Source: Minisyncoccia bacterium (lineage in GTDB: Bacteria > Patescibacteriota > Minisyncoccia > Phycocordibacterales > JAACPR01). Taken from it: a DNA stretch of 64,000 bases. The stretch is from the NCBI GenBank assembly GCA_041740795.1, contig JBGSLH010000011.1:3875-67874 (forward strand). Direction: 5' to 3'. Both the position numbers and the translations under genes were made by a program. The notes beneath the pieces are model-generated. The model saw nothing but the letters and a program-made list of their open reading frames with translations. It was not told the DNA's origin and did not search any database. Each line of letters opens with the position of its first letter. Positions within the stretch are counted from its first letter, which is position 1. This document shows, one piece after another, positions 4,560 to 47,436 of this stretch.

Positions 4560-7500
4560 ATGTTACTATGTAACAACATGTCTAATGCAATCTATACTGG
4601 AAGTACATATTACAAAAGAATAATACTATCAATCACGCTACTATTTTTCTTCGGTTTTTGTTCTAGTGTATCCGCAGCTGTTCCTCAGCCATTATTTTTA
4701 ATACAATTTGAAGATAATGTAAGAGATCAATCTGGAAATAATATTGTTACAACAAATGCCAGCATAACTACTTTTAATGATGGTCAACGTGGAAAGGTCG
4801 GCAATTTTAGCGGTACTAACGGTACCTATGTTTCAATGAATGTATCTCTTCCGACAAGTTTTACTAAATCTGCATGGGTTTTTACTCCCACCGGTACAAC
4901 CCTGAATCAAAGACATATAATCTCAAATGGGGATTTTGGATTTTTTCCAGTTTCTAATTTTTTTAGAGTTAATCAGGGTAAATTAGTCACAGGTGGTTTT
5001 CCTACAGAATATGCAATAGATCCAAATACTTTTTCCACAAATACGTGGACACATGTGGCTATGACATATGATCAACCAACCAAGGTTTATAAACTGTATA
5101 AAGATGGAGTTCAGATTGCAACAGGTACAGGTCCGGTTGATCCAAGTCCACACACGATGACTTTTATAGGTTCATATAATGGTAATAATAATTGGCTTGG
5201 GTATATAGATGATGCTGCAATGTGGAATTCAGTACTAAGTTCTACTGATATAAATTCTGTATACAATGGAACACTCACAGTTTCAACCAGTACTGTACCC
5301 CAACAAATACAATCACTTACACACACACGTGGTGATGGACGTATAACACTTGTATGGGCACCACCATTACTGAGTGGAGGTCCTGACATAACTGATTATG
5401 CTGTAGAGTACAAGCAATCATCAGATGTATCGTGGCTAACGTTTAATGATGGAATTTCAACCAGCACGACATCAACCGTTACGGGTTTAACAAACGGCGT
5501 TTCGTATGATTTTCGTGTGAGCGCGGTTAACTCTGTGGGTACAGGAACGAGTAGTGATGTTATAAGCTCTATTCCGAATATAGTTTCATACAAATATATA
5601 TTTTCATCAGGCCAAAGTTTATCTATCGGATCTGGTGCACTACCTCCTTTGTCTACAACTCAGCCATATTATAACTTGCAATTAAGTGGTTCAAACGGTG
5701 GAGGTATAAATAATGGAGGAAGGGGTCTAAATTTACCCCTTATTCCTCTTACTGAAATGAATGTTGAATCTCCTTCATCTGCAATGGTAAATTCACTTAG
5801 CATGAGCTCTAGTTCTCCTATAATTGTTGGTTCGCACGGTATAGGTGCAAGACCTTATAATGGATTAAAAAAAGGTACAACACAATATGCAGACGGTATG
5901 TATCAATTCACAACCGCACGTAATAAAGTACTATCTGAGGGCAATACTATTGCACCGATAGGTGTAACCATAACACATGGTGAAAATGATGAATTTCAAA
6001 ATCTGGGTGTTCAATATCAGGGATATTTAGTTGAGTGGCAAAGGGATTATCAAAATGATGTAAATGCAATAATAGGAGGAAGTTCTACCTTGCCAATGTT
6101 TATAAATCAAATGAATACAGGATGGAAGGGTTTTACAGCGGTATCTCAATATAATGCCCATAAAAATAATCCTAATAAAATAATATTAGTTGGACCAAAA
6201 TATCAATATACGTATAACTCTGATAAATTACATGTAAACAATACTTCATCTAAATTAATAGGTGAGATGCTTGCAAAAGTTATAAAAAAAGTTACCGTCG
6301 ACAATCAGGTTTGGAATCCTCTTATGCCAACATCTGTTTTACGTGATCAAAATATTATTACCGTTAGTTACAATATTCCATCTGGGCAACTCGTATTAGA
6401 TACAAGTCTTGTTGCACAACGTCCAAATTATGGATTTGAATTTGTTCAAACTGGCGGATCAGCATCAACGACAATAAATTCGGTTGAATTAATAAATAAT
6501 AATACACAAGTAAAAGTAACGTTGTCAGGTATTCCTGACGGTACAGATCAAAAATTGAGATATGCGTATACATGTTATTGGAATTTAAGTCCTGTTGATA
6601 ATTATGGAAGATGTGGTGACTCTAGTAATGGAACTTATGCTGGAGGAAATTTGCGCGATACAGACACTACAATATCTCCAGCATCAAACGGAACAGATCT
6701 TCCACTTTATAACTGGGGAGTTACGTTTGAAGAATCCATCTCACCTGCGAGTGTTCCTTCCGCTCCAACAGCACTCGGTGCAACTGCTGGCAATGCACAA
6801 GTCGATCTTTCGTGGACTGCTCCTGCCTCAAATGGCGGTGCATCCATTACCGACTACGCCGTTGAATACAAGACGTCTGCTACGTCTACTTGGACGACCT
6901 TCAGTGACGGAACATCCACTTCAACTGTGGCGACAGTGACCGGCCTTACCAACGCTACTGTCTATGACTTCCGGGTGAGCGCGACGAATTCTGTCGGGAC
7001 AGGAACAAGCAGTGCGAGCGTGAGTGAGACACCGGCTGTACAACTTGGACCAGATATATCTTCATTACTAGCGTCTAGCATTTCGACGTCATCAGCGACA
7101 ATAACTTTTACAACTGATGTTGTCGGATCTACCCGAATAGAATACGGGCCTTCACAGGACTATGGAAATCTCACCGCTGAAACAGATACTTCTCCGCGCG
7201 TAACGTCCCACACTGCGACACTCTCCGGACTCTCTGCGTGTACGAGCTATTGGTACCGTGTTCAATCAATTGCCAATAATGGCATTGGTGCAACGAGTAC
7301 GGCCTCAACATTTGCAACCAGAGGTTGTTCAGCGCAGGCTCCTATTTTATCCACTACGGCTGAAGCCGCGCCGACTGCCACGAGTACGATCGTAACTTTG
7401 GAAAAGACCCCTTTTTCAAAAGCCAGGTTGTCCATTCCCGCCAATTATTCTACAAGTACTTTGACATTTCAAATAAAGCGACTGCAACAATCGACATTCG

Positions 7501-32924: not shown

Positions 32925-34244
32925 TTAACTCAGACTAATTTTTTTGTCTTTCAATATAAGCTTACTCTTCAAATTACACAGCAATTCTCTCTTCTCATAT
33001 ATAGGTCTTTTCCTCAGAATGTGTTTTGCATAATTTCTAATGTCCACTTCTCTGATTTTCACTTTTTCCTTAACCTCTTTCCCGAGTACTGATTCTTGGA
33101 ACTCATTGTGTGATTCAATCTCAGATCTTATTCGATCTTTCATACCTATTTCATCAAGTGAAACGGTATCTAAAATATTTGCAATTTGTTCAATTAGAAC
33201 TTCTTCTTTAATATGTTCGCATTTGCAATCTTTGTCATGGAACTTTGTACATCTGTAATATACATAGCGTGCTTGAGTCCCATCTTTTAGTTTCTTGAAT
33301 TTTTCATCAGCCGTAACTCCTGACCCACATAGTCCACAAGTGATCATTCTTGTAAATGCAAATTCTTTATTTTGAGTTCGTACCAGATAATCATTGGTAA
33401 TTTGTTTTTGTACTTGCAGGTATAAATCTTTAGATATTATTGGCTCATGTTTTCCTTTATACCAATTTCCACTTTTAACTGGATATTCAAATTCTCCGTA
33501 ATAAAAGGTATTTTTTAAAATTATGTAAATGTTACTTAGTGTTAAAGGTCTTCCACTTTTAGATGTGAATCTAATATCATCTCTAAGCCAGTGAAATACT
33601 TTTCGTCCAGACCATCTGTTGTGTGCAACTTTTTCAAATATTTGTCTAATGATTTCTGATCTTTGCTCGTCTTTAATTACTTCACACTTTTTATTTCTAT
33701 CTCGGTTTATTAAATATCCGGTAGGGGGAACTGAAGGCCATAATCCCATTTCGCATCTTGCCCTGAGTCCACGCTTCACGTTCACCATCTTATTATCATT
33801 TTCAAGCTTTGCTTGAGAACCAAGAATCATGAGTAGGAATTTCTCATTTGGATTGTTTGTGAATTTTTGTCCGTAGGTTCGTATTTCAACAAGATGCTTT
33901 TGATCCATCAAATCCACTACTGATCCAAGGTCACCTGCATTTCTTGAAAGTCTATCTGGTGCCCATGTGAGAATTCCATTAAATTTTCCTTCTCGAATTT
34001 CATTGATAAGTTCGTTATATACAGGTCTTTGCCCAACTTCTTTTGATGAGTGAGATTCTCTCTTTATCTCTACAATAGTAAGCCCTTCTCGCTCTGCAAG
34101 TGCTTGCATTTCTCTCACCTGTGATTCGATTGATAATGCTTGTTTATCCTCTTGTTCGGTCGATTTTCGAGCATAGAGGCAGTACTTGATCTCTACTGGC
34201 ACTTCTTGCACAGGTACCCTTTCTGTCCTTTGTTTTGTTTCCAT
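32925..34244 (-). CDS. Large serine recombinase (resolvase domain + recombinase domain + zinc ribbon)
   Basis: YCLYARKSTEQEDKQALSIESQ with catalytic Ser, WAPDRLSRN, and CGLCGS...YYRCTKFHDKDC zinc ribbon. Confidence 0.9.
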   Translation of the reverse strand: METKQRTERVPVQEVPVEIKYCLYARKSTEQEDKQALSIESQVREMQALAEREGLTIVEIKRESHSSKEVGQRPVYNELINEIREGKFNGILTWAPDRLSRNAGDLGSVVDLMDQKHLVEIRTYGQKFTNNPNEKFLLMILGSQAKLENDNKMVNVKRGLRARCEMGLWPSVPPTGYLINRDRNKKCEVIKDEQRSEIIRQIFEKVAHNRWSGRKVFHWLRDDIRFTSKSGRPLTLSNIYIILKNTFYYGEFEYPVKSGNWYKGKHEPIISKDLYLQVQKQITNDYLVRTQNKEFAFTRMITCGLCGSGVTADEKFKKLKDGTQARYVYYRCTKFHDKDCKCEHIKEEVLIEQIANILDTVSLDEIGMKDRIRSEIESHNEFQESVLGKEVKEKVKIREVDIRNYAKHILRKRPIYEKRELLCNLKSKLILKDKKISLS

Positions 34245-34308
34245 ACCCCATTAATGACGCAACAGCCTTGATGAGTCTAGAGCGTCCGAGACTCCTTGAA
34301 GTTGGTAA

Positions 34309-35769
34309 CTAAATGGCATCTGGACGGACACCATTAGCAAAGACTCCAACAGACCCTCTTTTAACACTCCACTTCTCAGCTACCTTTAGAAGCAGGATTG
34401 CAAAAGCATCCACTAAGTCGTCGTGTTTTTCGATACCGAATCCAAGGAGTTGTGTAATGAGCTCATCTGCTCCGTGTCGTGGGAACAACACCTGTCCATT
34501 TTGTACGAGATGACTCACTGAATTGAGTCTACTGTATTTGTCACCTCGACTCCTTACTCCCTCAGCAGGATATCGAGCGGCCACTAAGTGCTCAATGATT
34601 GATTCTTGATAGCCATTACTTTCGATCCATAGTTTTCCCTTTGGATAAAATGAATCAGATATTGTCTTTGCCGTATCAATTGTGTCTAACGAGGTGAGTC
34701 GTCTGTTAATAATGTTTGGAGTAATGTAGATTACCATGTCCTTTGAGTATCGTCCTTGAATCTGTCCAGAAACCATCGCTGTATAGTCAGCGTTTTCTTT
34801 CTGTGAAATGGCGAGGTCGATACCAGTTGCAAAGTATGTGTGGTATGTCTTGATAGGTAATTTGTCATAGTGTTGTATCCACTCAGGTTTGATTATTTGT
34901 TCATCAGTTGAAATAATTCTGAGCAAGAATTCACGATTCCATGACACGTCATTCATTACCTTGGCACGCAACTCCTCAATACTCTCCATGTTCGGAAATT
35001 TTCCAGGCCATGCAGGATTTCCATTCTCATCAATAATGGGAAATTCCCTATAGACACCTTCAGTTTTTCCAGTCTCAATAAGATTCTGAAGTCGTTTCAG
35101 TAGTGAGTCTTCGTGAAGTAAGTTTCCAACAGCAACAATTTTTGTACCTCTATCACCAGCAGGAATAACTTCGCCTGTAAACCAGTCGAATATTTTATTT
35201 CTACCTTCTTGAGTTTTCACCATATTTGTATCTTCAACATCATCAAGAACGATAAGATCTGGACGAAATTCTCCAAAGAGTGAACCACGAATACTTTGCT
35301 CTACAGAACCGATGGTGATACGAGCCTTAAGTCTTGAAATGATAAGTGCTTGTGAACCCCACTGTGATTTTTCTTCTTGGAATGGTCCGAGGTCGTTACG
35401 AAGTAATGTGTTCTGTTCAAATTCACGTTTTATGTTCATCAGAAAGTGTCGAGCTCTTTGTTCGGTCTGACTCTGTATGGTCACAAACTTTTTTTGCTGT
35501 CTGCCGAGTATCGACCAGATGATGTATGCATTCGTAATCACTGTTGATTTTGCTGATCCACGAAAAGCGACGAATATGGCAAGCTCTATATCATCACTCT
35601 GAAGAATACGAAATATCTCCCGATGGAATTCAGGGGTTTCATACTTGATGTATCGCGAATAGTAGATAGTGAAAAACCACTCAAAGTCACGAGATGTAAT
35701 CTCACGTCTTAGAGTTTTGTCCTTCAATATTCGCTCAATCAGTTTCTCTTTTTCCTTACTCTTTTTCAT
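34309..35769 (-). CDS. Phage terminase large subunit
   Basis: ATPase motifs FRGSAKST and DLIVLDDVED. C-terminal RNase-H-like nuclease motifs GIDLA and HDDLVDAFAILL. Confidence 0.8.
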   Translation of the reverse strand: MKKSKEKEKLIERILKDKTLRREITSRDFEWFFTIYYSRYIKYETPEFHREIFRILQSDDIELAIFVAFRGSAKSTVITNAYIIWSILGRQQKKFVTIQSQTEQRARHFLMNIKREFEQNTLLRNDLGPFQEEKSQWGSQALIISRLKARITIGSVEQSIRGSLFGEFRPDLIVLDDVEDTNMVKTQEGRNKIFDWFTGEVIPAGDRGTKIVAVGNLLHEDSLLKRLQNLIETGKTEGVYREFPIIDENGNPAWPGKFPNMESIEELRAKVMNDVSWNREFLLRIISTDEQIIKPEWIQHYDKLPIKTYHTYFATGIDLAISQKENADYTAMVSGQIQGRYSKDMVIYITPNIINRRLTSLDTIDTAKTISDSFYPKGKLWIESNGYQESIIEHLVAARYPAEGVRSRGDKYSRLNSVSHLVQNGQVLFPRHGADELITQLLGFGIEKHDDLVDAFAILLLKVAEKWSVKRGSVGVFANGVRPDAI

Positions 35770-36169
35770 GATTTCGTAGTGATGAAAGTTTCAATGCTTC
35801 TCGAATTAATTGTTTCTGCTCTCTTGTAAGTGGTTCATCTTTTGAAATTGAACCAGACACTTCGAGTTTGTTGCTGTACCGAGCGTTGTGTGTAGAAAGA
35901 TACAGCCTGATTGCTTCGATCTTCTTCTCACCAATGAGTGAGAAGAGTTGATTCTCTGCAATGTCAGACATAAACGTACGTCCTTCTGTCAGTGCTTCAT
36001 CAACTTTTTTCTCGAATTGTTTGTTTGTATTAATCCATCTATAAACTGTTGATCTGGCAACACCAACTTTTTGACATGCGGTTTCAATAGTTGGTGTACG
36101 TTTCAACTGCTCAAGAAAAGCTTCTTTGAGTTTGTTTTGCCGAGCTGTGATTGTTTTACGTCTACTCAT
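35756..36169 (-). CDS. HTH protein, terminase small-subunit-like
   Basis: ACQKVGVARSTVYRWINTNKQFEKKVDEA. It overlaps the terminase large subunit start. Confidence 0.5.
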   Translation of the reverse strand: MSRRKTITARQNKLKEAFLEQLKRTPTIETACQKVGVARSTVYRWINTNKQFEKKVDEALTEGRTFMSDIAENQLFSLIGEKKIEAIRLYLSTHNARYSNKLEVSGSISKDEPLTREQKQLIREALKLSSLRNHEKE

Positions 36170-36924
36170 ATTTTTTCTGCTTTAATACCTGATAATTTTT
36201 CAAACCTGTCTATGATTGTCTGACAATATTCTGTGTCCATCTCAACTCCAATACAGACTCTTTTTGTTTGTTCACATGCAAGTAGAGTTGTTCCTGATCC
36301 AAGAAAACCATCAAAAACAATATCTCCAATCCGAGTACTGTTTAAGATGAGTCTTCGTATTAAATCAAGTGGTTTTGTTGACGGATGCATTTTGCTTTTG
36401 TTTGGTCGAGGACAAATAAGAACACTCTTATCTTTTGACTTGATAAACTCATGTACTCCAAACCATCCGTAGGCAATCAATTCATGTTGTGGGGCGTAAT
36501 CCATCCTTCCAATTACGGCATGTGTCTTGACCCAAATAAGCAATTGTCCAAACTTCACACCTGCTTGAAGCATGCCTTCTCTGAGAGCAAATATCATTTT
36601 GTCTGAGTTGAAGATGTAGAACGTATTTTTCCTTTCAAGGTGGGGAAGTATGGCTTCTATCCATTCCTTGGTGAACTTAATATATTCAGCATCAGTCTGA
36701 TAATGATCATTTGCGATCACTTTGTTTTTTGAAAGAGTTTGAAATCCTTCTTTACTTTCAGTTAGGGCGACACCATATGGTACATCAGCAATTACTGATT
36801 TGATTTTCCTGTCTTTGATTACTTTTGAGATTAATTCTTTATTTCGAGAATCAGTACAGATTAGTAGATGATCTCCGAGTTTAAAAATTTCTCCTTCTTT
36901 AATTAAGTTTGGTGATTTTTTCAT
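36166..36924 (-). CDS. DNA N4/N6 methyltransferase (beta-class motif order)
   Basis: Motif IV IADVPYG precedes motif I FDGFLGSGTTLLACE. Confidence 0.8.
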   Translation of the reverse strand: MKKSPNLIKEGEIFKLGDHLLICTDSRNKELISKVIKDRKIKSVIADVPYGVALTESKEGFQTLSKNKVIANDHYQTDAEYIKFTKEWIEAILPHLERKNTFYIFNSDKMIFALREGMLQAGVKFGQLLIWVKTHAVIGRMDYAPQHELIAYGWFGVHEFIKSKDKSVLICPRPNKSKMHPSTKPLDLIRRLILNSTRIGDIVFDGFLGSGTTLLACEQTKRVCIGVEMDTEYCQTIIDRFEKLSGIKAEKI

Positions 36925-38185
36925 TTGGATTAAGTTGTTTAAATCTGTTAATTATTACCTGACAAAAAACTGGTTCGATTTCATTCATGTACGCTATTCT
37001 TTTTAGTTGTTCACATGCTGATAAAATACTTCCAGATCCTGCTGTTGCATCGAGGATAATGTCTCCGGGTCTTGTACATCTTCGAAGAGATTTTTCATGC
37101 AATGTTGGACACTTTTGAGTCGGATGCGAATATTGATCGACTGGGAGTCTTTTTACTAACCAAATGTTCAGAAGATCGAGAATGTCATCAGTCAGTCTAT
37201 TTCCAGTAGTGACTTCTTTATTCTGAATCTCGTGGAGGTTTTTGAACTTATCATTAATCCAAGGTTTGCCGACTGTTCCATATACACAGAATTCTGTTAC
37301 TTTGTTGAACGCCTGTTTTGGAGTTGCTGAGAAGTTGTTCTTGATCCAAATGAGGAGTCTCTTCGAATCTACTTTTAATTCTTTGTATGCTTTTTGAAAA
37401 AGCCAAACGTATCGCTCATCACACCAGAAAAGTACGTGAGCATCTGTCTTGATGACAGATAGGGAATTGGTAATTATTGTTTTTACGAATCTTTCATATT
37501 CTTCGTCAGATTTACTGTCATTTGTCTTTCCACCATACTTACCTTTCTTCGCAGACATTCCGTGGTCATATGAATATGAAATATTAAATGGCAAATCTGA
37601 ATTTATTAAGTCAGCTTTTTCTCCGTTCATAAGTTTCTTGATGTTCTCAGGATTTAGAGAATCAGAACAAAGGAGTCGATGTCTCCCCAGAGCAAAATAA
37701 TCACCAACTTTAATGTCAGTATCTTTTGCTTTCTCGATTTCCTTTTCTTCATCAAACTCATCGTCAGATACATCTAGTTCATCATCGAAGATGTTTGAAA
37801 GATCTAGTGAATCAAATCCTGCTGTGAGAAGTTCTTCAAGATCAAAGTCTTGTGCGAGTTTCTCAAAGTCCCATGATCCTCCTGAACGATTTGAAGTTAG
37901 TAGGTAGTCCTTAAACTCTGCTTGGGTAAGAGGTCTGTTTGGAACTCGAACTTCAATTTCCTCTTCATTTCTTCCTAGTAGGGAAAGGGCGAGTATTCTT
38001 TGGTTTCCTGCAATTAATGTTCCGTCTGTGTTGATACAGGGTAATTCTGCAACATTAAACTTCTTAAGACTTCGCTGAAGTCCCTTGAGTTGAATATCTG
38101 ATAATGTTCTTGGGTTTTTTGAGTATCTTATTAAATCCTTCACTCGTCGCTTTTCTGTGTGCCAGACTATTTTTTGTTTAGACAT
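36899..38185 (-). CDS. ParB-like nuclease domain fused to a DNA methyltransferase
   Basis: ParB-N-like N-terminus (IRYSKNPRTLSD...GNQRILA), acidic linker, NSDLPFNISY (motif IV) and LDATAGSGSILSACE (motif I). Confidence 0.8.
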   Translation of the reverse strand: MSKQKIVWHTEKRRVKDLIRYSKNPRTLSDIQLKGLQRSLKKFNVAELPCINTDGTLIAGNQRILALSLLGRNEEEIEVRVPNRPLTQAEFKDYLLTSNRSGGSWDFEKLAQDFDLEELLTAGFDSLDLSNIFDDELDVSDDEFDEEKEIEKAKDTDIKVGDYFALGRHRLLCSDSLNPENIKKLMNGEKADLINSDLPFNISYSYDHGMSAKKGKYGGKTNDSKSDEEYERFVKTIITNSLSVIKTDAHVLFWCDERYVWLFQKAYKELKVDSKRLLIWIKNNFSATPKQAFNKVTEFCVYGTVGKPWINDKFKNLHEIQNKEVTTGNRLTDDILDLLNIWLVKRLPVDQYSHPTQKCPTLHEKSLRRCTRPGDIILDATAGSGSILSACEQLKRIAYMNEIEPVFCQVIINRFKQLNPNEKITKLN

Positions 38186-38187
38186 GT

Positions 38188-38556
38188 TTATTTTTTATCG
38201 TTAATAAGTTCAATGTTGGTAATTTTTAGAAACAAAGCTACATCACTGGACGTGACCTTATCTGATTGTGTCTTTTCATACAGACCTTCAATCACATCAG
38301 GTATTCGTTCTTTCGCCCAGTTTTTAATTGTGGCAATTACTAGATCATCAAATCGAGGATGACGTTTCCAGTCTGTGAGAGTGTCTTCACAAACTCCGAT
38401 CGATGTTGCAAATTCCTTTTGAGTCTTTATCTTTCTAGATCCTCTTGGAGTCCCGCACCAGACTGCAAATTGAACAAATTCGGCTGGTAAACGAAGATTT
38501 AGAGTGCTTAACTGAAAATCGGATTTAATCGGAGTAAGCGATGAAGTTTTATTCAT
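38188..38556 (-). CDS. Phage HTH protein
   Basis: QKEFATSIGVCEDTLTDWKRHPRF is an HTH pattern. It is the first gene of the minus-strand block. Confidence 0.4.
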   Translation of the reverse strand: MNKTSSLTPIKSDFQLSTLNLRLPAEFVQFAVWCGTPRGSRKIKTQKEFATSIGVCEDTLTDWKRHPRFDDLVIATIKNWAKERIPDVIEGLYEKTQSDKVTSSDVALFLKITNIELINDKK

Positions 38557-38595
38557 GTAATTTATTTATGATTAATTGCTAATGTGAAGCAACAA

Positions 38596-38635
38596 AAAAC
38601 ACCGAATACTTTTATTTAAAAGTATTCGGTGTTTT
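38596..38635. terminator. Perfect 18-bp hairpin with A/T tracts on both sides
   Basis: aaaacaccgaatactttt-attt-aaaagtattcggtgtttt. Confidence 0.6.
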
Positions 38636-38647
38636 GGAAATTAAAAA

Positions 38648-38720
38648 AAGGGATGCAAATTTCCAATAACAAAATACTCCTAAATTAATAGGTATTTATT
38701 ATTCGAAATTTATATCCCTT
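38648..38720. repeat. Long imperfect inverted repeat (22-nt arms, 3 mismatches) with a nested inner stem
   Basis: aagggatgcaaatttccaataa ... ttattcgaaatttatatccctt, with inner stem aaatac/gtattt. Confidence 0.6.
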
Positions 38721-39178
38721 ATGATACGACTTATCCTTCGCCGTTAGTATCGTGGTCTGTTTGCGGGTGACATCATCATATCCAGTTTCTATATAAAATC
38801 ATTTCAATTGCCCTCGCAAGGTTTATATTCCTGTTGGTCTACTAAACCGGTTGGCGCCTCGCTCGGACAATCTTTAATAAGTGTTTCAAGTTGCTTTCAT
38901 GTGAATTATACTTATATTTTTATAAATTGTGCAAACTGTATCTGTGGATAACCCCAATAAGTTGAATGCATAGGTTTATTTACAGTTCTAATAAATAAAG
39001 TATTGAACGGGATATTCATTTTGGGATAAAACTTTTAATATGTCTCGGAAAAGTGGTAAAATAAATTTACAAAATTCAATAACCTAACCCTCTAAAGAGA
39101 TATGGTTAAAAGTCCGTCCAAAGAATTTCCTTGTGAGAGGATTCCTCTTTTGTGTCGTGTAGTTATATGAGTTTTGTT

Positions 39179-40228
39179 TTATTCATTCAACCAAAACCAA
39201 AACATGTTTTTTACACTCTCTGTCATTTCATATGTGTCAGCGTGAGACAAAACACCCAAATATGATGCAAATGAAGATTTCATCGTTAACTCTTTTATTT
39301 TGCCATTTTTATAGAGAGTTACATTCTGATGGATTTTCTTAGGAATCTTTCGTTTAGTTTTTGTGCGGAGTTTTATGTGGTGGGGCAGTATTACATATCC
39401 AAGAAAATCAATCCCTTGATTATGTTTTCGTAGAATCAATTTCTTTGGGTGTAATTCGAGATGAAGTTCTTTCTTTAGAAATTCTTGTATCGGAAGAAGT
39501 AAGTTTTCGAGATGGGCTTTATCATCTGAAATAATTACAAAGTCATCTGTATACCGTGCATAGTTTTTTATTTTTAATTTATGTTTAACAAATTGATCAA
39601 ATTTATCCATATAGATATTCGCAAATATTTGCGATGTCAGATTTCCTATCGGTACACCCTTCGACTCAAAAAGATTCGTACGACTCGCTTCAAAACTACC
39701 GATTACTTCTCGAAGAAGCTTTCTAACTTTTTCATCTTTTATTTTTCCATTCAAGATTTTAATCAGTGTTGTGTGATCTATGGAATCAAAAAATCTCTTA
39801 ATATCACATTTAAGTGCATAACATGGATGTGTATGATTTTTGCTTACTGTTCGTATCATTTTAGCAACTTTCTCCATACCTTTATGTGTTCCTTTGCCAA
39901 TTCGACAGGAATACGAATCGTTGATAAATGTAGGTTCAAATATCTGATTCAAAACACAGAACATTGCATGATGAAGAACTCTGTCTCTCACTGTTGCTTT
40001 ATGAATTCTTCTGAGTTTGGGGTCATGTATCCAAAATCCTTTATATGCTCCATGTCTATATTTTTCTTCTTTCAAATCTCTATACAGGTCGAATATGTTT
40101 TGTTCAAGATCAATCTCAAAAGCCATAACATCAGGTTTATTCCGTTTGTCAGATTTGAATATTTCCCAAGCAGGAAACAGTGTTTGGGGAGAAATTATTA
40201 ACCAATATAAATCTTTATAAAATTTCAT
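39179..40228 (-). CDS. Diversity-generating retroelement reverse transcriptase
   Basis: RT motifs include VPIGNLTSQIFANIYM, the DGR-type [ILV]GxxxSQ motif 4, and the YTDDF catalytic box. Size about 350 aa. Adjacent Avd and a TR/VR pair are present. Confidence 0.9.
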   Translation of the reverse strand: MKFYKDLYWLIISPQTLFPAWEIFKSDKRNKPDVMAFEIDLEQNIFDLYRDLKEEKYRHGAYKGFWIHDPKLRRIHKATVRDRVLHHAMFCVLNQIFEPTFINDSYSCRIGKGTHKGMEKVAKMIRTVSKNHTHPCYALKCDIKRFFDSIDHTTLIKILNGKIKDEKVRKLLREVIGSFEASRTNLFESKGVPIGNLTSQIFANIYMDKFDQFVKHKLKIKNYARYTDDFVIISDDKAHLENLLLPIQEFLKKELHLELHPKKLILRKHNQGIDFLGYVILPHHIKLRTKTKRKIPKKIHQNVTLYKNGKIKELTMKSSFASYLGVLSHADTYEMTESVKNMFWFWLNE

Positions 40229-40230
40229 TT

Positions 40231-40581
40231 ATGAATGAATTAGATATACCAATCTTCAAAAAGTCCTATGACTTGTATAAAGATTTTTACACGCTCCGAT
40301 TATCAGTACCAAAGCAAGATAGATACACTCTTTGGCAAAAATGTGAGAATTTATTAATTGAAGTTTTGGAGGGAATTCTTTTTGCGAGCCAACAGACAAA
40401 ACTAGAAAAACTGCCCACATTAGAAAAGACGAGTGTTAAACTGAATTTTCTACGAGTTTGCATTCGACTAATGAAAGACATTAGAGCAATCGATGCTAAA
40501 AAGTACGTTATTATTGAAGCGAACCTAGATGAAATAGGAAGAATGCTTGGAGGTTGGATAAAATCAACGAAAGATCGTTAA
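40231..40581 (+). CDS. avd: Accessory variability determinant (Avd; four-helix-bundle / 23S rRNA IVS protein family)
   Basis: MNELDIPIFKKSYDLYKDFY...VPKQDRYTLWQKCENLLIEVLEGILFA...LDEIGRMLGGWIKS matches the Avd pattern, including the GrmLGGW tail. The ORF track starts at 40180; the ATG at 40231 is preferred. Confidence 0.8.
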   Translation: MNELDIPIFKKSYDLYKDFYTLRLSVPKQDRYTLWQKCENLLIEVLEGILFASQQTKLEKLPTLEKTSVKLNFLRVCIRLMKDIRAIDAKKYVIIEANLDEIGRMLGGWIKSTKDR

Positions 40582-40586
40582 ATAGA

Positions 40587-40608
40587 AAACCCACATTATG
40601 TGGGTTTT
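40587..40608. terminator. Bidirectional hairpin between the avd 3' end and the TR
   Basis: aaaacccaca-ttat-gtgggtttt, with U-tracts available on both strands. Confidence 0.6.
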
Positions 40609-40629
40609 CTTAGAATAGAGTTATGACTG

Positions 40630-40745
40630 CCTGGCACCCGACAAGGCGATATTGTCATTGCGGTTGTCGTCGTTCCAGTTGTTGACATTGAGACCCTTGG
40701 AGTCGAAGTTGCCGACGTTGACACGGTTACCGTCCGAGTCGAGAT
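40630..40745 (-). repeat. DGR template repeat (TR)
   Basis: 116-bp alignment to 41101-41216 with 13 mismatches. Twelve of these lie at plus-strand T, which is A on the minus or sense strand of this copy. In the sense frame it is rich in AAC/AAT codons. Homology continues about 8 nt further (40623-40630), with a 3-nt indel. Confidence 0.88.
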
Positions 40746-41022
40746 ATTGCACGTTCCCATCTATGTCACCGAGACTCTAGGTTTACTACCTTTTCAGGTT
40801 TATATCCTCCCATCTCTGAATTTTATTCAGGAGCAGTTTTGAAACACCTCCACAAGGAACGCACAAGAAGTTCTCTCTATCCATAATCGCACTCTACCGT
40901 AATCCATAAATCACTGGTACTCTGACGAATCTTTAGGTGAGATAATCTCGCGAACTTGAACCATAATCCAAGTTACATTAGCAAGATGTAAATATACTAG
41001 CCTTAATAGTATAAAAATGAAA

Positions 41023-41053
41023 GAGCCTCCGCGAAAAAATTTCGCGGAGGCTC
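41023..41053. promoter_or_regulatory. Perfect 14-bp hairpin downstream of the VR/stop codon (terminator and/or DGR target-recognition hairpin)
   Basis: gagcctccgcgaaa-aaa-tttcgcggaggctc lies 39 nt beyond the stop of the target gene. Confidence 0.6.
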
Positions 41054-41091: not shown

Positions 41092-41856
41092 TCACTGCTT
41101 CCTGGCACCCGACAAGGCGATACTGTCAATGCGGTAGTCGTCGTACCAGCCGTTGACAAGGAGACCCTTGGAGTCGAAGCGGCCGACGTAGACACGGTAA
41201 CCGTCCGAGTGGAGATCGACGCAACGAACGTAGATCTTCTCGAACAGACGTTCTCCAGTGGCAAGGAAGTGACCGATCATGGTGTAAACCACAATCCGAG
41301 CAGTCGGCGTTTCCTCGTCTTTCGAGAGGAGGGCCTGCTGATCGTTCCATGTCTTCGAGGTCGAGTTGGCGATGGATTCCTTGCGGACCAACTGCCAGCC
41401 GACTTCACCCTTGTTCTTGGCGAACGCTTCTTTGTCGTACCAGTCCTGCGAGTAAAACAGGGTTTGGTCGGACTGCTTCTTGACGATGCCACGGATGTCG
41501 AGGATCGACAGCGGGAATACGGCGACGAGAATGTGCGTGTCCTTACAGGACGTGAGCACTTCCTCGCTGAACGGAACTTCGGACAAGTAGGCGAGCTGTT
41601 GCTTCGTGGCGTTAATCCCGAAGTGTTTGATCGCTTCCTCGATGCCGAAGAAGTTCTTGCCCATAATCTCGCAAGCGAGCTTCTGTGACGTTGACGGTTC
41701 ATATCCATTGTTGAGACACAGAGTTGCTACACGCTGTGCGACTGTTTCGTCGGCATTGATCCGATCAACAATGATACCAGCTCGATCGCCGAATGCGACC
41801 ATGAGGCGTTGAAAGGCGGCGTTAGTTTGACCTGATGGAATTTCTGTCCATTTCAT
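41092..41856 (-). CDS. DGR target (variable) protein with C-terminal VR, probable C-type-lectin-fold ligand-binding domain
   Basis: 254 aa. The C-terminus VDLHSDGYRVYVGRFDSKGLLVNGWYDDYRIDSIALSGARKQ is encoded by the VR. A strong SD (aaggag) sits 9 nt upstream of the ATG. The gene is much more GC-rich than its flanks. No signal peptide is seen. Confidence 0.85.
   Translation of the reverse strand: MKWTEIPSGQTNAAFQRLMVAFGDRAGIIVDRINADETVAQRVATLCLNNGYEPSTSQKLACEIMGKNFFGIEEAIKHFGINATKQQLAYLSEVPFSEEVLTSCKDTHILVAVFPLSILDIRGIVKKQSDQTLFYSQDWYDKEAFAKNKGEVGWQLVRKESIANSTSKTWNDQQALLSKDEETPTARIVVYTMIGHFLATGERLFEKIYVRCVDLHSDGYRVYVGRFDSKGLLVNGWYDDYRIDSIALSGARKQ
41101..41216 (-). repeat. DGR variable repeat (VR)
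   Basis: Counterpart of the TR. TR AAC/AAT codons appear here as TAC, TAC, CGC, CTT, AAC, GGC, TAC, TAC, ATT and AGT. Confidence 0.88.
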
Positions 41857-42185
41857 GATGATGTTCTCCTTTTTCTGTTAGCCTTTTTGAAATTATCTCG
41901 AAGGCGGCTGGATTTGAGTATACGATCTCGAATATTACGTCTTGTCTTTGTGAGACGAGCTTTTTGTGTCCTATATTTAAGGCAGAAAAAGCTCGTCTCA
42001 AACAGTGAATACTTGTGAAAGAACTATGAGTATAGTATAGCAAAGAAATAGCCATTTGTCAATGGCTCGTAATGGTTCGATACCTTGGAATCACCCCCCC
42101 TTCGCAAGACTCATTATGTAAGGTAAGGTACTGACTAATATCATTAATTTTGATATTATGTTCTAGGTACAACTGAATATAGAGA

Positions 42186-42328
42186 CCTAACCCCGAAAAG
42201 CCTTAAAACTCTTCGGATATGGTCGCAAATCCGTCCAAAGTAAAGAACTCCTAATCAGAGCTACTTTGGACGGTCATATCTCGAAAGGGGTATGGGTATA
42301 TCTCACGGGATATATCGGCCTGGTTAGG
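42186..42328 (+). ncRNA. Candidate structured element (strand uncertain) closed by cctaacc/ggttagg with three nested hairpins
   Basis: Stems: 42186-42192/42322-42328; ccgaaaag/ctcttcgg; gatatg/catatc; and a perfect 12-bp ccgtccaaagta/tactttggacgg (42231-42242/42262-42273). Its 5' part is repeated at 39083-39123. Confidence 0.35.
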
Positions 42329-43496: not shown

Positions 43497-45128
43497 ATGG
43501 CTAAAGACTATTCACAATTAAGCAAGGAGGAACTTCTCAGTATCGTTGAGAGGTTAGAATCTCGTAAAAAATATGGGTTAATTTGGGATGAGGAAACAAC
43601 TAAAGAAATATTCGAAATTCAGTCTCGAAATGCTTTACCAATTGTTAAATTAAGCAAAAGTAGAGAAATAAAGTCAAAGAAGAATGTTGGTTTGCCAAAT
43701 ATCCTAATTGAAGGTGATAACTATCACGCTCTATCTGTTCTCAATTTTACACACCAAGGAATGATTGATGTCATTTATATTGATCCTCCTTACAATACAG
43801 GTAGTGGTGATTTTAAATATAATGATAGGTTTGTCGACGAAGAAGACGCTTTCAGGCATAGCAAGTGGCTTACTTTCATGTCTAAGCGTTTACGATTAGC
43901 CAAAAATTTACTTACAGAAGATGGGATTATTTTTATAAGTATTGATGATAATGAACATGCGCAACTCCGCATGCTTGGAGATGAGATTTTTAACGAGAAA
44001 AACTTTGTAGGTACAATAACGTGGGAGAAGAGAACTAAAGCACAAAATACTGAAACGGCTAAAGAAATGTTTCAATCTAAAACTGAATATATTCTTGTGT
44101 ATAAAAATGATAAAAATAAAATTTGATTTAATTTGGAAGTAAGTGGAGAGAAAAAATATGATCTTGAGGATGAGAATGGTCCATACAGACTAAAGCTTGT
44201 GGAAGAGATGTCAGCTCGCGGAATGAGAGGTCGTGAGACTATGGTCTTTCCTATCAAAGGCATTTCTCCAAGAACAGGGTATCAATAGAAAATTGGTAAA
44301 GATCAAATTAAACGTAAGGAGGATGCTGGTGCTATAGATATTGTTGATGGTAAACCATATATGAAAATTAGACCTGACGAAGAGACTAATCAAAAGTTTT
44401 TACCATTTTGGTCTCATTTTTTCGACAAAGATACTTATGGAACATCAGAGAAAGGAAAGTCAGAACTGACAAAAATTTTAGGATCAAATGAGCATGAATT
44501 TGAGACCGTAAAACCAGTAAGCTTAATTAAGAAATTACTTTTTCATATAAACAAGAAAGACTGCCTAGTCTTGGACTTCTTTGCTGGTTCGGGCACAACT
44601 GGACATGCTGTACTTGAAATGAATCATCAAGATGGTGGTACGAGACGTTTTATTTTGTGTACAAATAATGAAAATGGAATTGCAGAAGATATCTGTTATC
44701 CAAGGATAAAAAATGTGATACGCGGGTATAAAGATCAAGATCCTCGAGATGCCTCGCTAAAATATTTCAAGACTTCGTTTGTAAAAATGAGCCCTGCAAA
44801 AGATGACATGAAAATACGTCTTTCAAATCAGTGTACCGAGATGCTTTGTATACGTGAAAGTGTTTTTGATGAAATAAAAAGTACTACTGATTATAAAATT
44901 TTCAAACAAAATGATAAAATTCTTGCTGTCTATTATTCACTTGAACGAGACGCTCTTAAAACTCTCAAGAAAGAACTAGATAAACTCGATGGATCTAAGA
45001 CATTGTATTGCCTGACTCTTGATCCATTAGGATTGAGTAAAAGTGATTTTAGTGGATGGGAAAATGTTATGCTTGAACCAATTCCTCAAAAAATATTGGA
45101 AATATATAAACAAATTTATGAGTATTAA
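43497..45128 (+). pseudogene. mod: Type III restriction-modification methyltransferase (Mod) interrupted by two in-frame stops (TGA 44124-44126, TAG 44286-44288)
   Basis: ORFs 43497-44126 (motif IV DPPYNTG) and 44361-45128 (motif I FFAGSGTTGHAV) are in the same frame. The 234 nt between them translate cleanly: FNLEVSGEKKYDLEDENGPYRLKLVEEMSARGMRGRETMVFPIKGISPRTGYQ*KIGKDQIKRKEDAG. Confidence 0.8.
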
Positions 45129-47436
45129 TTTAAAACAATATCAAGACACGGCAGTAAATCAATTGATTGATACAGCAATCAAACTTCTTGGTTATGACGG
45201 TCCTGGCGAAGTTTGTGTTTTTCAAGCTCCCACTGGAAGTGGAAAAACAATCATGGTCGCTAAATTTATAGAGGGTCTTATTAAAGAAGCATCAGATGAA
45301 GACCTTTGTTTTGTGTGGATGTCTATTGGGAAGGGTGATTTACATATGCAAAGTAAACATAGTTTAAATAAAATTTTTGCTGGAGCACCGAGAGTTTCTT
45401 TGGTCGAAGAAGAATTTTCTGGTGGACGTGAAAGAATTGTGCAAAATGAAGTTGTGGTTGCAAATTGGGAAAAACTTCGAAGTAAAGATCGTGAAGGTGA
45501 ATGGAAAAATCTTTTAATGAAGGATGGAGAGAAATTAAATTTTAGAGATGTTTTAGATAAGACAAAAGAGCAACGAAAAATTATTCTTATAATTGATGAG
45601 AGTCATGTGAGTGCTGATACAAGGAGAGCTAATGAACTTCGTGATCTTATTGGTGCTGATATCGTTCTTGAAATGAGCGCAACACCAAAGCGTCCACAAC
45701 AAGAACTTAATTTTGCTAGAGATCTTGCAACAGGAGGTGCTGGGTATGTGGTTGTTGACCCAAAAGATGTAATTGACGAGGGGATGATAAAAAAAGAATT
45801 AATTATTAATGAAGATATAGAAAAAATTGGTCAATCAGAAGATGATTCTCAAAGAGTTGTATTAGAAGCGTCCTATAAAAAACGACTTGAACTTAAAAAA
45901 ACATTTCAAAAAGATGGTTCACACATAAACCCACTTGTTCTTGTGCAAATACCAACTGCTGAAGCTGGTGAAGCAAAAATAGAGGCAGTTCAAAAATTCT
46001 TAGCAGAAAAAGGTATTACAGAAAAGAACGGCAAATTAGCAATTTGGCTTGCAGATCAAAAATCAGAAACTTTAGACTGGATTGCAGAACCAGATAATGA
46101 AATTGAATTTCTCATTTTTAAACAAGCAATTGATACTGGTTGGGATTGTCCCCGTGCACATATTCTCGTGAAATTTAGAGAAACACATAGTGTTGTATTT
46201 GAAATCCAAACAGTTGGACGAATTTTACGTATGCCAGAGCAGAGACATTATTTGACTGATGTACTTAATAAAGGATATATCTATACGAACCTGAAATCTA
46301 TTGAGGTAAAAAAAGAAGAATACAATCCAAATATTATTAAACATCTTAAGGCAGATAGAGCTGAAACATATAAACCAATCAAGATTACTTCATATTACAA
46401 ATCTCGTGTTGATTATGGAGATGTAACGTCAAGTTTTGCAAAGGTTTTTGCTACAGTTGCTAATCAAGAATTTAATATAAAAGGATTGAAGCCAAATGAA
46501 AATAGAAAATCTGTCGAAGCACGAGGTGTAAATCTTGATATCAAAAAATACCAACAAGAATTTATTGCAGATACTAAAATAGATACAAAAGATTTAGATG
46601 ATCTCACAAAAGTTAGTCCAGAAGCTATGGCAAAACTAAGTATGGCAGCAGACGAACTTCAAATATTTTTTGAACAATTAATCAAGTCAACACTTGGCTC
46701 ATTTAGAAATGTGAAACGTTCTGTGCCAAGTGTAAAATCAGCAATCTATCAATGGTTTAAAAAATACTTAGGATCAGAAGAATGGCCAGAAGAAATCTTA
46801 CTTATCCAACGAGTGTTTTTGCATGACAAAAATAAGGTTTTCTTTGAGAAAATTCTTGCAAGATCTATGGAACAGTACAAGGAAGTAAAAGAAAAAGAAG
46901 TACGAGAGAAAGTAGAGGAAAGTGAACAATGGACAGATTTTGATCTTCCGAAAGAAATGTTCTTTAATGAGCATGCAGATGAAAAGGTAAAAGCACGGAA
47001 TTATGCGTTTGAACCATGTTACTTAAATAAAGATCGTTCAAGACCAGAAAGTGATTTTGAAGATTTTCTAAATTCAAATAGTTCAGAAATTTTATGGTGG
47101 TGGAAGAATGGTGAAAATAAAATTGAATATTTTGGTATTAAGTATGAATACGAAGGACAAATCTTTACGTTTTATCCAGACTATATAGTACAACTCAAAG
47201 ATGGACGTCTTGGTCTATTAGAAACAAAAGATGCAGGAGATCGTGATGGAAAGACATATACAAAAGCGAAGGCAGAAGCACTACAAAAGTATCTGGTTGA
47301 TTCAAAAAATAGGAAGCTTTTTGGTGGTATTGCTATTAAAAAAGGTTCTGATTGGATGATAAATCAAGCTAAGGTTTATGACTGGGGAAAAGTCGAGAGG
47401 GGAGTTTGGAGTGAGTGGGACTTGCTGGACTTATGA
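45118..47436 (+). CDS. res: Type III restriction enzyme Res subunit (SF2 helicase + C-terminal PD-(D/E)xK nuclease)
   Basis: FQAPTGSGKT and IIDESH helicase motifs. YPDYIVQLKDGRLGLLETKD nuclease motif. ATG 45118 overlaps the mod stop by 11 nt. Confidence 0.8.
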   Translation: MSINLKQYQDTAVNQLIDTAIKLLGYDGPGEVCVFQAPTGSGKTIMVAKFIEGLIKEASDEDLCFVWMSIGKGDLHMQSKHSLNKIFAGAPRVSLVEEEFSGGRERIVQNEVVVANWEKLRSKDREGEWKNLLMKDGEKLNFRDVLDKTKEQRKIILIIDESHVSADTRRANELRDLIGADIVLEMSATPKRPQQELNFARDLATGGAGYVVVDPKDVIDEGMIKKELIINEDIEKIGQSEDDSQRVVLEASYKKRLELKKTFQKDGSHINPLVLVQIPTAEAGEAKIEAVQKFLAEKGITEKNGKLAIWLADQKSETLDWIAEPDNEIEFLIFKQAIDTGWDCPRAHILVKFRETHSVVFEIQTVGRILRMPEQRHYLTDVLNKGYIYTNLKSIEVKKEEYNPNIIKHLKADRAETYKPIKITSYYKSRVDYGDVTSSFAKVFATVANQEFNIKGLKPNENRKSVEARGVNLDIKKYQQEFIADTKIDTKDLDDLTKVSPEAMAKLSMAADELQIFFEQLIKSTLGSFRNVKRSVPSVKSAIYQWFKKYLGSEEWPEEILLIQRVFLHDKNKVFFEKILARSMEQYKEVKEKEVREKVEESEQWTDFDLPKEMFFNEHADEKVKARNYAFEPCYLNKDRSRPESDFEDFLNSNSSEILWWWKNGENKIEYFGIKYEYEGQIFTFYPDYIVQLKDGRLGLLETKDAGDRDGKTYTKAKAEALQKYLVDSKNRKLFGGIAIKKGSDWMINQAKVYDWGKVERGVWSEWDLLDL

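Follow-up and report, generated by a model that had tools for sequence, protein, structure and literature searches.

The locus and its genes

The window, by which we mean the whole 64-kb stretch of DNA analysed here, contains a DGR whose genes, repeats and associated signals are collected in Table 1. The identification of the locus as a DGR is secured by the RVT_1 and bAvd domains encoded there and by adenine-specific mismatches between the template repeat (TR) and the variable repeat (VR): across their 119 nt the two repeats differ at 14 positions, 12 of which are adenines in the TR, in AAC/AAT codons. The locus has a DGR-type reverse transcriptase (RT), in whose ORF translation the motifs PIGNLTSQ and YTDD can be read, an adenine-biased TR/VR pair, a VR at the 3′ end of the target gene, where it ends 6 nt before the stop codon, and an Avd. 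In addition, the two repeats show a putative IMH/IMH* difference, with the TR ending in GGCAG and the VR in GGAAG. The VR is the only one in the window.

The target protein belongs to a family with 1111 homologues but shows no Pfam match and no PDB sequence match, and an AF2 model built from 36 homologues is of low confidence (pLDDT 53, and below 50 across the C-terminal 94 residues). The promoter-like region upstream of the target gene is conserved in relatives. About 44 nt past the VR lies a GC-rich hairpin (−26.7 kcal/mol, z −7.6) that is kept in relatives upstream of the RNA promoter discussed below, and which we take to be the GC-rich inverted repeat known downstream of the IMH in DGRs; this role is predicted. 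A LOOT RNA (Rfam RF03000) neighbours the locus on the + strand, at 42184-42316, with a score of 73.8 bits against a gathering score of 46.4.

Table 1. Genes, repeats, RNA elements and predicted signals of the DGR, in window coordinates
Feature	Position	Strand	Basis or remark
DGR reverse transcriptase gene (349 aa)	39179..40228	−	Pfam RVT_1, E 3e-26
Back-to-back divergent start codons, CAT-tt-ATG	40226..40233		sequence
avd accessory gene (116 aa), divergent from RT	40231..40581	+	Pfam bAvd PF22296, E 9e-18
Stem-loop just 3′ of TR, abutting avd stop; candidate bidirectional intrinsic terminator	40586..40608		folding
Conserved linker UCAUAACUCUAUUC (18 nt)	40609..40626	−	alignment
Template repeat (TR), 119 nt	40627..40745	−	88% identical to VR
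Conserved structured 5′ domain of DGR RNA (~240 nt), between VR and TR	40747..40987	−	covariation and folding
P5	40855-40866 with 40747-40758	−	5′ domain helix
Organizer strand GGAUAGAG	40875-40882	−	pairs with linker 3′ of TR
P1	40981-40987 with 40945-40951	−	5′ domain helix
Candidate −10 box TAGTAT of DGR RNA promoter	40994..40999	−	position conserved
GC-rich 14-bp hairpin downstream of VR, predicted target-gene terminator	41023..41053	−	terminator scan
DGR target gene (254 aa), VR at C-terminus	41092..41856	−	ORF
Variable repeat (VR), 119 nt	41098..41216	−	near-repeat of TR
Promoter-like site of target gene, TTGACA-17-TGnTATACT, 11/12	42034..42062	−	promoter scan

The gene layout is that of CPR DGRs

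The initial annotation had drawn attention to an inverted avd, to RT and avd start codons that diverge only 2 nt apart (RT start CAT at 40226-40228, avd start ATG at 40231-40233) and to a TR lying beyond the 3′ end of avd, all of which is in the sequence. It had also proposed a survey of related cassettes for the same layout and held that co-oriented avd genes among them would imply an assembly inversion. Across 161 independent related genome and metagenome sequences from many studies, avd is divergent from and adjacent to the RT gene in 144, and a co-oriented avd occurs in none. The inverted avd is clade-wide, and the idea that an inversion or chimera of the contig conceals an avd truly co-oriented with the RT gene is ruled out by this survey and by the earlier publication of the same layout as Architecture B3 (PMC5758913). 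Finer details of the arrangement are also shared. In 58 of 73 relatives avd is 351 nt long with an ATG start, and the gap between the two start codons falls between −2 and +5 nt in 61 of the 73; in 6 loci the codons overlap as CATG. The TR is on the RT strand and abuts the avd 3′ end in 101 of 107 related sequences, and in three loci (L035, L037 and L049) the entire RNA module lies on the strand opposite the RT gene.

Architecture B3 is defined as TR-(avd)-RT, where avd is the sole accessory gene and lies on the reverse strand, and 90% of CPR DGRs have it (Wu et al. 2018, NAR 46:11, PMC5758913). The same core order with a reverse-strand avd is found at this locus, and its host group agrees, as the nearest matches of the RT, at 60-85% identity, come from Patescibacteria/CPR MAGs (Parcubacteria, Paceibacterota and Taylorbacteria). 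Among annotated proteins the RT is closest to phage DGR RTs, at 31-38% identity, and an IMG/VR scan with the RT as query returned no relatives. The locus is thus an ordinary CPR (Patescibacteria) DGR of the published B3 layout, made up of target gene with VR, TR, inverted avd and RT gene. It shares with B3 CPR DGRs the order and orientation of these parts, a CPR host, a target without a recognisable domain and a GC-rich hairpin after the VR, and no difference in gene layout separates it from them; it is one more member, and its gene layout adds nothing new to the published norm for CPR DGRs. Hence the “non-canonical architecture” of the initial annotation is apt when the locus is set against Bordetella but not among CPR DGRs, where B3 predominates. 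The accessible part of the published B3 description (PMC5758913) makes no mention of a structured RNA 5′ of the TR, of a promoter for it, of a terminator hairpin or of abutting start codons.

A conserved RNA structure flanks the TR

Apart from the hairpin and linker 3′ of the TR, all conserved non-coding structure in alignment A3 lies 5′ of the TR, in the domain of about 240 nt between TR and VR. In A3, which comprises 21 loci, 99% of cells are paired and 33 of 82 pairs show compensatory change; none of 500 shuffles reaches this, and slid controls yield 5-7 such pairs. A further alignment, A6, has 96% of cells paired and 32 of 33 pairs covarying (score 0.718 versus 0.218 for shuffles), pair counts that are inflated because A6 was fitted to the model. 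The covariance model R1 gives 96 matches, each directly 5′ of a TR and on the TR strand, with one copy per TR; it matches 61 of 80 genome loci as well as the window, where no match occurs elsewhere in the 64 kb. The long-range architecture is reproduced by the window’s own MFE fold. Within the domain, P6 and P7 are located between the two strands of P5, and the 3′ strand of P5 ends a median of 2 nt before the TR homology (81 loci). Another strand of the domain, UUGUGCGUUCCU, forms a helix with the 12 nt that immediately precede the TR, and this helix (A3 columns 238-249/415-426) covaries. In a search of Rfam at E up to 10, neither the 5′ domain nor the hairpin is covered by a family, and only sub-threshold noise appeared there. 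The accessible literature gave no account of this 5′ RNA domain, which may already be described in Paul et al. 2017, reportedly the main paper on CPR DGRs.

On the other side of the TR, the segment CUCUAUUC (40613-40620) of the conserved linker pairs with GGAUAGAG of the 5′ domain, an RNAalifold prediction in which all cells are paired (A3 columns 222-229/578-585) and which the window’s own MFE fold also contains. Compensatory variants of this organizer-linker helix are seen in L096/L149, L022 and L033, a permutation test over 27 organizer classes gives p = 2e-4, and the register of the pairing varies between subclades. The linker is followed by the stem-loop that abuts avd. As the initial annotation noted, it has U-rich runs on both strands, and it starts 18 nt past the TR/VR homology rather than about 21. 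Its stem of 12 bp has a folding energy of −17.0 kcal/mol on the − strand (z −5.8) and −16.5 kcal/mol on the + strand (z −4.9), and 0 of 200 shuffles are as stable. Of 137 loci, 119 carry a hairpin of 8 bp or more here, with sequences that differ from locus to locus and with compensatory change at 5 of 9 pairs in A3.

Transcription of the TR, RT and avd

Of 44 distinct loci, 42 have a TANNNT box at −12 to −7 relative to where the conserved RNA would start, and its counterpart in the window is accompanied by a weak −35 element (TTTCAT). A promoter-like match at 40992..40963 on the − strand was rejected as the RNA promoter, as it falls inside the conserved P1 helix and the TANNNT box at 40994-40999 fits all loci. 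At the other end of the candidate RNA, the linker, a strong hairpin and a U-run still follow the TR in L035, L037 and L049, in which avd is not convergent with it. Because the −10 box is fixed and the terminator-like hairpin is present even without a convergent avd, a separate TR transcript is the best reading of the sequence, and its placement opposite RT in these three loci marks the RNA module as independent of the RT gene. The proposal of the initial annotation that the TR RNA is a separate short transcript, cut off from the RT, accordingly needs revision: “separate” agrees with these features, “short” does not suit a predicted RNA of about 400 nt with a 5′ domain of some 240 nt, and the TR is not really cut off, since the cis-acting RNA elements appear to have moved upstream of it.

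The signals of the two protein genes are less conspicuous. Within 20 nt upstream of the start codon, an SD-like motif is found for RT in 0 of 67 cases and for avd in 1 of 67. The consensus scan detects no embedded RT or avd promoter at 9/12 or better in the relevant stretches, including none for RT on the − strand at 40229-40600, inside antisense avd. Positional counts of TANNNT/TATAAT show peaks upstream of avd (−16 to −13) and weak ones upstream of RT (−41 and −62), but they fall on codons conserved in the partner gene, which makes them indistinguishable from protein constraint, and third-codon-position information along avd reveals no clear extra-conserved stretch. Upstream of RT there is no conserved promoter position.

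This lack of a promoter-like site, a conserved promoter position or an SD in front of RT speaks for an alternative in which transcription that begins upstream of the TR reads past the hairpin and on into RT, antisense to avd. TR and RT would then share a transcript, as they do in Bordetella, with antisense avd as a long spacer and the hairpin acting only as a structural or Avd-binding element of the RNA. The hairpin sits at the position of the Bordetella stem-loop directly 3′ of the TR, which binds Avd and is not a terminator (bioRxiv 10.1101/2023.10.23.563531), and it may bind Avd here too; the consensus terminator scan did not call it. However, it has the form of a bidirectional intrinsic terminator, with a long stem between an A-run and a U-run, and it is its shape rather than its sequence that is conserved. 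Moreover, the modules placed opposite RT still end in a hairpin and U-run, an RNA antisense to the whole of avd would oppose avd expression, and the conserved non-coding structure is all found 5′ of the TR. We therefore regard read-through into RT as unlikely.

Another possibility is that the 5′ domain stands outside the DGR mechanism, as an independent small RNA or a 3′-UTR element of the target gene that happens to lie beside the TR. It does directly follow the target-gene terminator in most loci. Yet it is always immediately 5′ of the TR and on the TR strand, and this holds in loci whose VR or target gene has another place or orientation as well as in those whose module is turned round with respect to RT. 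Both flanks of the TR are paired, with covariation, to two strands of this domain, each TR has a single copy of it, and the window has no further one. This makes an independent element quite improbable. Even less credible is the view that the hairpin serves avd alone and is unrelated to the TR: its 3′ end does abut the avd stop codon (median distance 1 nt), but the TR keeps its linker, hairpin and U-run where avd is not convergent, and the avd of L049 has a terminator-like hairpin of its own beyond its stop codon.

A proposed permuted template RNA

From the computed anatomy, conservation, covariation, fixed −10 box, hairpin and module independence, we infer a model that assigns transcript ends, priming and stop roles, homology with the Bordetella Sp and a mode of RT and avd expression. 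In this model, which on sequence evidence we consider reasonably likely, the locus is a B3 DGR whose TR is made as a discrete ncRNA of about 400 nt, with the organizer upstream of the TR in a circular permutation of the Bordetella RNA. The ncRNA would run on the − strand from about 40987 down to about 40584, starting from its own promoter just after the target-gene terminator, and would consist in order of the structured 5′ domain of about 240 nt, the 119-nt TR, the 18-nt linker and the terminal hairpin, which would both end the ncRNA and terminate the convergent avd transcript. With GGAUAGAG paired to the linker 3′ of the TR and UUGUGCGUUCCU to the 12 nt 5′ of it, the RNA would be bound by RT-Avd. 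The cDNA would then be primed from a conserved junction (GAGAGAACUUCUUG), with the RNA-cDNA junction predicted in GAGAGAACUUC (about 40868-40878), the TR would be copied with errors at adenines, and synthesis would stop at the P5 duplex, within a few nt of 40746. RT and avd would be expressed apart from the RNA, SD-less and possibly leaderless, from promoters embedded in each other’s 5′ ends.

To our knowledge, the mechanism of DGR cDNA synthesis has been worked out only in the Bordetella phage, whose cis-acting RNA occupies the space between TR and RT. The Bordetella BPP-1 DGR RNA comprises the avd 3′ end, the TR and Sp; Sp 47-56 takes part in the template:primer duplex and Sp 59-70 in the cPRT Stop duplex, and beyond this organizer come a small hairpin, then a stretch of single strand and finally the long stem-loop to which RT binds (Handa et al., bioRxiv 10.1101/2023.10.23.563531). 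The present locus shares with BPP-1 the component set of RT, Avd and TR/VR with adenine-specific changes, as well as a stem-loop directly 3′ of the TR. In both, the TR is framed by two duplexes formed with adjacent strands of one organizer, to which priming and stop roles may be assigned here, and the organizer is succeeded by a small hairpin, by a single-stranded segment and by a long stem-loop interrupted by internal loops. In contrast, the organizer is 3′ of the TR in BPP-1 (Sp) and about 110-240 nt 5′ of it here; no structured Sp of the Bordetella type is found between TR and RT, where 18 nt and one hairpin are followed by antisense avd. The avd gene itself is inverted and placed between TR and RT, the primer duplex would use the linker just outside the TR/VR homology rather than the last TR nucleotides, a P1-P3 subdomain adds about 100 nt, and the RNA probably ends at a terminator before RT. 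The circular permutation is proposed from topology and element order, because the elements follow one another as in Bordetella with the organizer upstream of the TR rather than between TR and RT. Sequence comparison detects no homology with the Bordetella Sp, and at E up to 10 there is no match to the Rfam RT-10 motif, reportedly from Weinberg et al. 2017, or to any other RT motif.

The predicted RNA also resembles the msr-msd of retrons, in that it would, like them, be a discrete structured ncRNA encoded beside an RT gene, with its own promoter and with complementary flanking strands enclosing the templated segment. Retrons prime from an internal nucleotide, and the same is suggested for the RNA described here. 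Nevertheless, the RTs belong to different clades, retrons have no Avd, TR/VR pair or adenine mutagenesis, and retron cDNA is not homed into a target gene.

Implications for CPR DGRs

CPR bacteria hold about 40% of distinct DGRs (PMC8632793). A published survey of Bordetella-like RNA elements in other DGRs, CPR included, covered only 40 nt upstream and 100 nt downstream of the TR. If the organizer of B3 DGRs is truly 110-240 nt upstream, surveys have missed its place in a large share of known DGRs. It is tentatively suggested, at somewhat lower confidence than for the locus itself, that B3 DGRs, the dominant CPR class, may employ a stand-alone ncRNA of circularly permuted order, with a promoter and a terminator to itself, in which the domain that organizes RT and Avd, with its primer strand, stop strand and RT-binding stem-loops, comes before the template. 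If this is true, it would account for the ability of avd to lie inverted between TR and RT, it would define a new and widespread RNA family absent from Rfam, and it would predict the priming nucleotide and the cDNA stop for hundreds of uncultured DGRs. The model gives exact coordinates for the promoter, the priming junction, the stop duplex and the terminator, and the covariance model R1 can be used to annotate TR RNAs in CPR genomes.

Cassette layout and its conservation

The cassette of the diversity-generating retroelement (DGR) is as the initial annotation described it: the inverted avd, the 2-nt gap between start codons, the position of the template repeat (TR) and the hairpin are all present in the sequence. 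TR and the variable repeat (VR) differ at 14 of 119 nt. Twelve of these mismatches fall at TR adenines, in AAC/AAT codons, and the remaining two are found at the boundaries of the repeats: G6>C, and C117>A, which is a difference of the IMH*/IMH type.

Features of the DGR cassette and its surroundings (window positions)
Feature	Position	Strand	Details
RT gene	39179-40228	-	Pfam RVT_1, E 3e-26; motifs PIGNLTSQ and YTDD
avd	40231-40581	+	bAvd PF22296, E 9e-18
Start codons, RT CAT and avd ATG	40226-40228 and 40231-40233		2-nt gap
Hairpin 3' of TR	40586-40608		12 bp; U-rich runs flanking both sides; -17.0 kcal/mol (z -5.8) on -, -16.5 (z -4.9) on +
TR	40627-40745	-	119 nt; near-repeat of VR
TANNNT box	40994-40999		here TAGTAT
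Second hairpin, after VR	41023-41053		14 bp, GC-rich
VR	41098-41216	-	3' end of target ORF
Target ORF	41092-41856	-	254 aa
Target leader	within 41857-42062	-	~170 nt; perfect 15-bp hairpin at ~41941-42000
Target promoter	42034-42062	-	near-consensus TTGACA-17-TGnTATACT
LOOT RNA, full length (Rfam RF03000)	42184-42316	+	73.8 bits (gathering score 46.4)
LOOT 5' half, diverged	39079-39141	+	40 nt beyond RT stop
Promoter-like site	39035-39062	+	just upstream of LOOT 5' half
Terminator-like hairpin, strong	38596-38635	-	540 nt downstream of RT
Phage-like remnant	32925-38556	-	RT side
Type III restriction-modification system	43497-47436	+	opposite flank; mod (methylase) gene split into ORFs 43497-44126 and 44361-45128

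The nearest RT relatives, at 60-85% identity, come from MAGs of Parcubacteria, Paceibacterota, Taylorbacteria and other Patescibacteria. We surveyed 80 loci from GTDB genomes, 80 from metagenomes and the window (161 sequences), and searched each for avd with an HMM grown iteratively from the Avd of the window. The gene is divergent and directly upstream of RT in 144 of the 161, window counted, and co-oriented in none; it went undetected in 17, of which nine lack flanking sequence and four of the remaining eight are distant RT matches (27-33% identity). Thus, the layout is no artefact of an assembly inversion. Among surveyed divergent-avd loci having a TR/VR pair, TR lies on the RT strand and abuts the avd 3' end in 101 of 107. 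Starts are reliable in 73 loci; 61 of these have a gap of -2 to +5 nt between the RT and avd start codons, and in six the codons overlap as CATG. This arrangement, first taken here as non-canonical, has already been named Architecture B3, 'TR-(avd)-RT' (Wu et al. 2018, PMC5758913), and the window therefore adds a further example to an established class.

Expression of RT and avd

RT and avd have no intergenic space between them. A Shine-Dalgarno-like motif precedes RT in 0 of 67 loci and avd in 1 of 67; the target gene, by contrast, has a clear AAGGAG upstream of its ATG. A promoter scan of the relevant stretches found no consensus promoter for RT or avd. Ahead of the avd ATG, at a distance of 13-16 nt, is a TATAAA-like box that would suit a near-leaderless avd mRNA, but the same bases encode conserved RT codons (K-I/F-Y-K), so a promoter signal is inseparable from protein constraint. 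It is possible that each promoter is embedded in the 5' coding end of the partner gene; alternatively, RT may be expressed by read-through of the terminator of the upstream RNA.

A structured RNA domain 5' of TR

The ~280-nt 'spacer' from the VR hairpin to TR is strongly conserved in 21 close relatives (alignment A3), where it varies by helix-preserving substitutions and by insertions of hairpin size. RNAalifold predicts 14 helices outside TR in A3, with 99.0% of cells paired and two-sided changes in 33 of 82 pairs; none of 500 shuffles did as well, and sliding the structure by 1-3 columns leaves just 5-7 such pairs. Folded by itself, the window sequence gives the same long-range architecture. 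An nhmmer profile of this 5' domain matched 85 loci, invariably directly 5' of TR and on the TR strand. We also made a covariance model of its core (R1) from 48 diverse sequences. R1 detects precisely one copy for each TR and matches 61 of 80 genome loci as well as the window; applied to 98 sources, it yields 96 matches, including L035, L037 and L049, where the domain is opposite to the RT strand. In the resulting 96-sequence alignment (A6), whose counts are inflated by fitting to R1, pairing holds in 96% of cells and covariation is seen in 32 of 33 pairs, with a covariation score of 0.718 versus 0.218 shuffled and at most 0.16 slid. Searched against the families of Rfam 15, among them the RT-1 to RT-19 motifs, the region gave no match at E up to 10.

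Within this domain, two adjacent strands each pair with one TR flank. The organizer strand GGAUAGAG (40875-40882) pairs with CUCUAUUC in the linker (40613-40620), 6 nt beyond the TR/VR homology, and all A3 cells are paired. Compensatory variants of this duplex are GGAUGGAG:CUCCAUCC in L096 and L149, AGAAAAAGAA:UUCUUUUUCU in L022, GAGAUGGAA:UUCCAUCUC in L033 and AGAUGGAA:UUCCAUCU in L091 and L095 (permutation test over 27 organizer classes, p = 2e-4). The second strand, UUGUGCGUUCCU (40855-40866), starts eight nt beyond the GGAUAGAG strand and pairs with GGGAACGUGCAA (40747-40758) directly 5' of TR; of the 12 pairs in this helix, 6 show compensatory change in A3 and 11 in the model-fitted A6, and the helix ends a median of 2 nt before TR/VR homology starts (IQR 2-4, 81 loci). 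No other part of the RNA is as conserved as GAGAGAACUUCUUG, the junction of the organizer and stop-like strands.

The hairpin 3' of TR and the predicted extent of the RNA

Between TR and the avd stop, 119 of 137 loci have a stem of 8 bp or more. The 3' end of this stem adjoins the stop codon (median 1 nt) and in some loci overlaps it; the stem keeps its shape but varies in sequence by locus, with compensatory changes in 5 of 9 pairs (A3). In L035, L037 and L049, TR is on the avd strand and avd is hence not convergent with it, yet TR is still trailed by linker, strong hairpin and U-run, and L049 has an additional terminator-like hairpin past avd's own stop codon. Therefore, the hairpin is part of the TR module. 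In Bordetella phage, a stem-loop directly 3' of TR (Sp 3-33 of the spacer RNA) binds the Avd pentamer, and putative equivalents occur in 207 of 278 Avd-containing DGRs, including those of CPR (Handa et al., bioRxiv 10.1101/2023.10.23.563531). The hairpin here may act as terminator and Avd handle at once.

At the other end, a TANNNT hexamer occupies exactly -12 to -7 from the first conserved RNA nucleotide, the A of AUCUUGC (40987), in 42 of 44 distinct sequences. Box and hairpin would delimit an RNA of ~404 nt, from 40987 to ~40584 (-), with both ends predicted from sequence. The module is inverted relative to RT in three loci, and in about a dozen the target gene is inverted or elsewhere. The fixed box, the 3' hairpin and these rearranged loci support the separate TR transcript suggested initially, but not its shortness, given a structured RNA of this length; nor does TR seem to be cut off, its cis elements apparently having been relocated upstream rather than lost.

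Variant arrangements and genomic surroundings

In L035, L037 and L049 the 5' domain, TR, linker and hairpin all come after avd and share its strand, and VR and target are found past the RT 3' end; the resulting order is avd then RNA, divergent from RT. VR is on the strand opposite to TR, and the target gene divergent from the RNA, in eleven loci (L122, L118, L124, L125, L129, L140, L144, L007, L009, L017 and L019). L122 carries two oppositely oriented 5'-domain copies, 1037-1189 (-) and 2502-2655 (+), possibly two head-to-head cassettes.

TR and the part of the target gene outside VR have 52-57% GC in a region of 31-35%. Across 42 relatives, target GC keeps to 0.44-0.60 (mean 0.55) independently of the neighbouring RT and avd genes, which range over 0.31-0.54, and it is at least 8 points above that of RT in 38 of 42; RT and avd, not the target, track host base composition. 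The conserved leader hairpin accounts for microRNA-like noise matches in the Rfam scan, and the whole leader (folding z -4.5) is 80-90% conserved in many relatives.

One LOOT RNA lies just upstream of the target and a 5' half beyond RT, both on the strand opposite to the DGR. Such bracketing recurs in relatives (L001, L088, L098, L101, L083 and L124 among others), with a half 40-65 nt beyond the RT stop in 10 sequences and a full copy upstream of the target in 5, window counted in each; L001 has the reversed arrangement (6151-6300 and 2987-3049), and all matches are antisense to RT. The pattern looks like direct repeats bounding a ~3-kb cassette, either att-like or from insertion into a LOOT gene; we found no description of it. 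Past the RT stop, 38557-39178 holds 620 nt without an ORF of at least 60 aa, and nothing in it but the LOOT half is conserved in relatives. The cassette is in a variable region of the CPR chromosome: the phage-like remnant encodes a large serine recombinase, a terminase-like ORF, a small-terminase-like HTH protein and two N6/N4 DNA methylases, one of which belongs to a 428-aa protein whose N-terminal extension is long.

A proposed circularly permuted DGR RNA

In the RNP of Bordetella, Sp 47-56 acts as primer strand and pairs with the TR 3' end, with priming from A56; two nt further, Sp 59-70 forms the 'cPRT Stop' duplex with the segment immediately before TR, the place at which cDNA synthesis ends. 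Next along Sp come a small hairpin, the single-stranded 'Thumb Ring' and a long stem-loop that binds RT and contains two internal loops (bioRxiv 10.1101/2023.10.23.563531). The elements of the CPR RNA follow one another in this order too: a primer-like strand, then a stop-like strand, the P6 hairpin, an A-rich stretch and P7, itself a long stem-loop with two internal loops. However, its organizer lies entirely before TR, whereas in Bordetella the equivalent strands are carried by Sp. Closing the Bordetella RNA into a circle and opening it again at the boundary of Avd-binding stem-loop and primer strand would yield exactly the CPR order, and on this ground our proposal for B3 elements is a circularly permuted DGR RNA. 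The two TR-flanking duplexes would then have priming and stop roles, and we infer homology with the Bordetella organizer rather than convergence.

Beyond the known B3 layout, this analysis adds the RNA domain upstream of TR and the model of a permuted RNA; neither was found described in Rfam or in the literature covered, to which Paul et al. 2017 did not belong. A permuted RNA would explain why no more than a hairpin has to stand between the inverted avd and TR.
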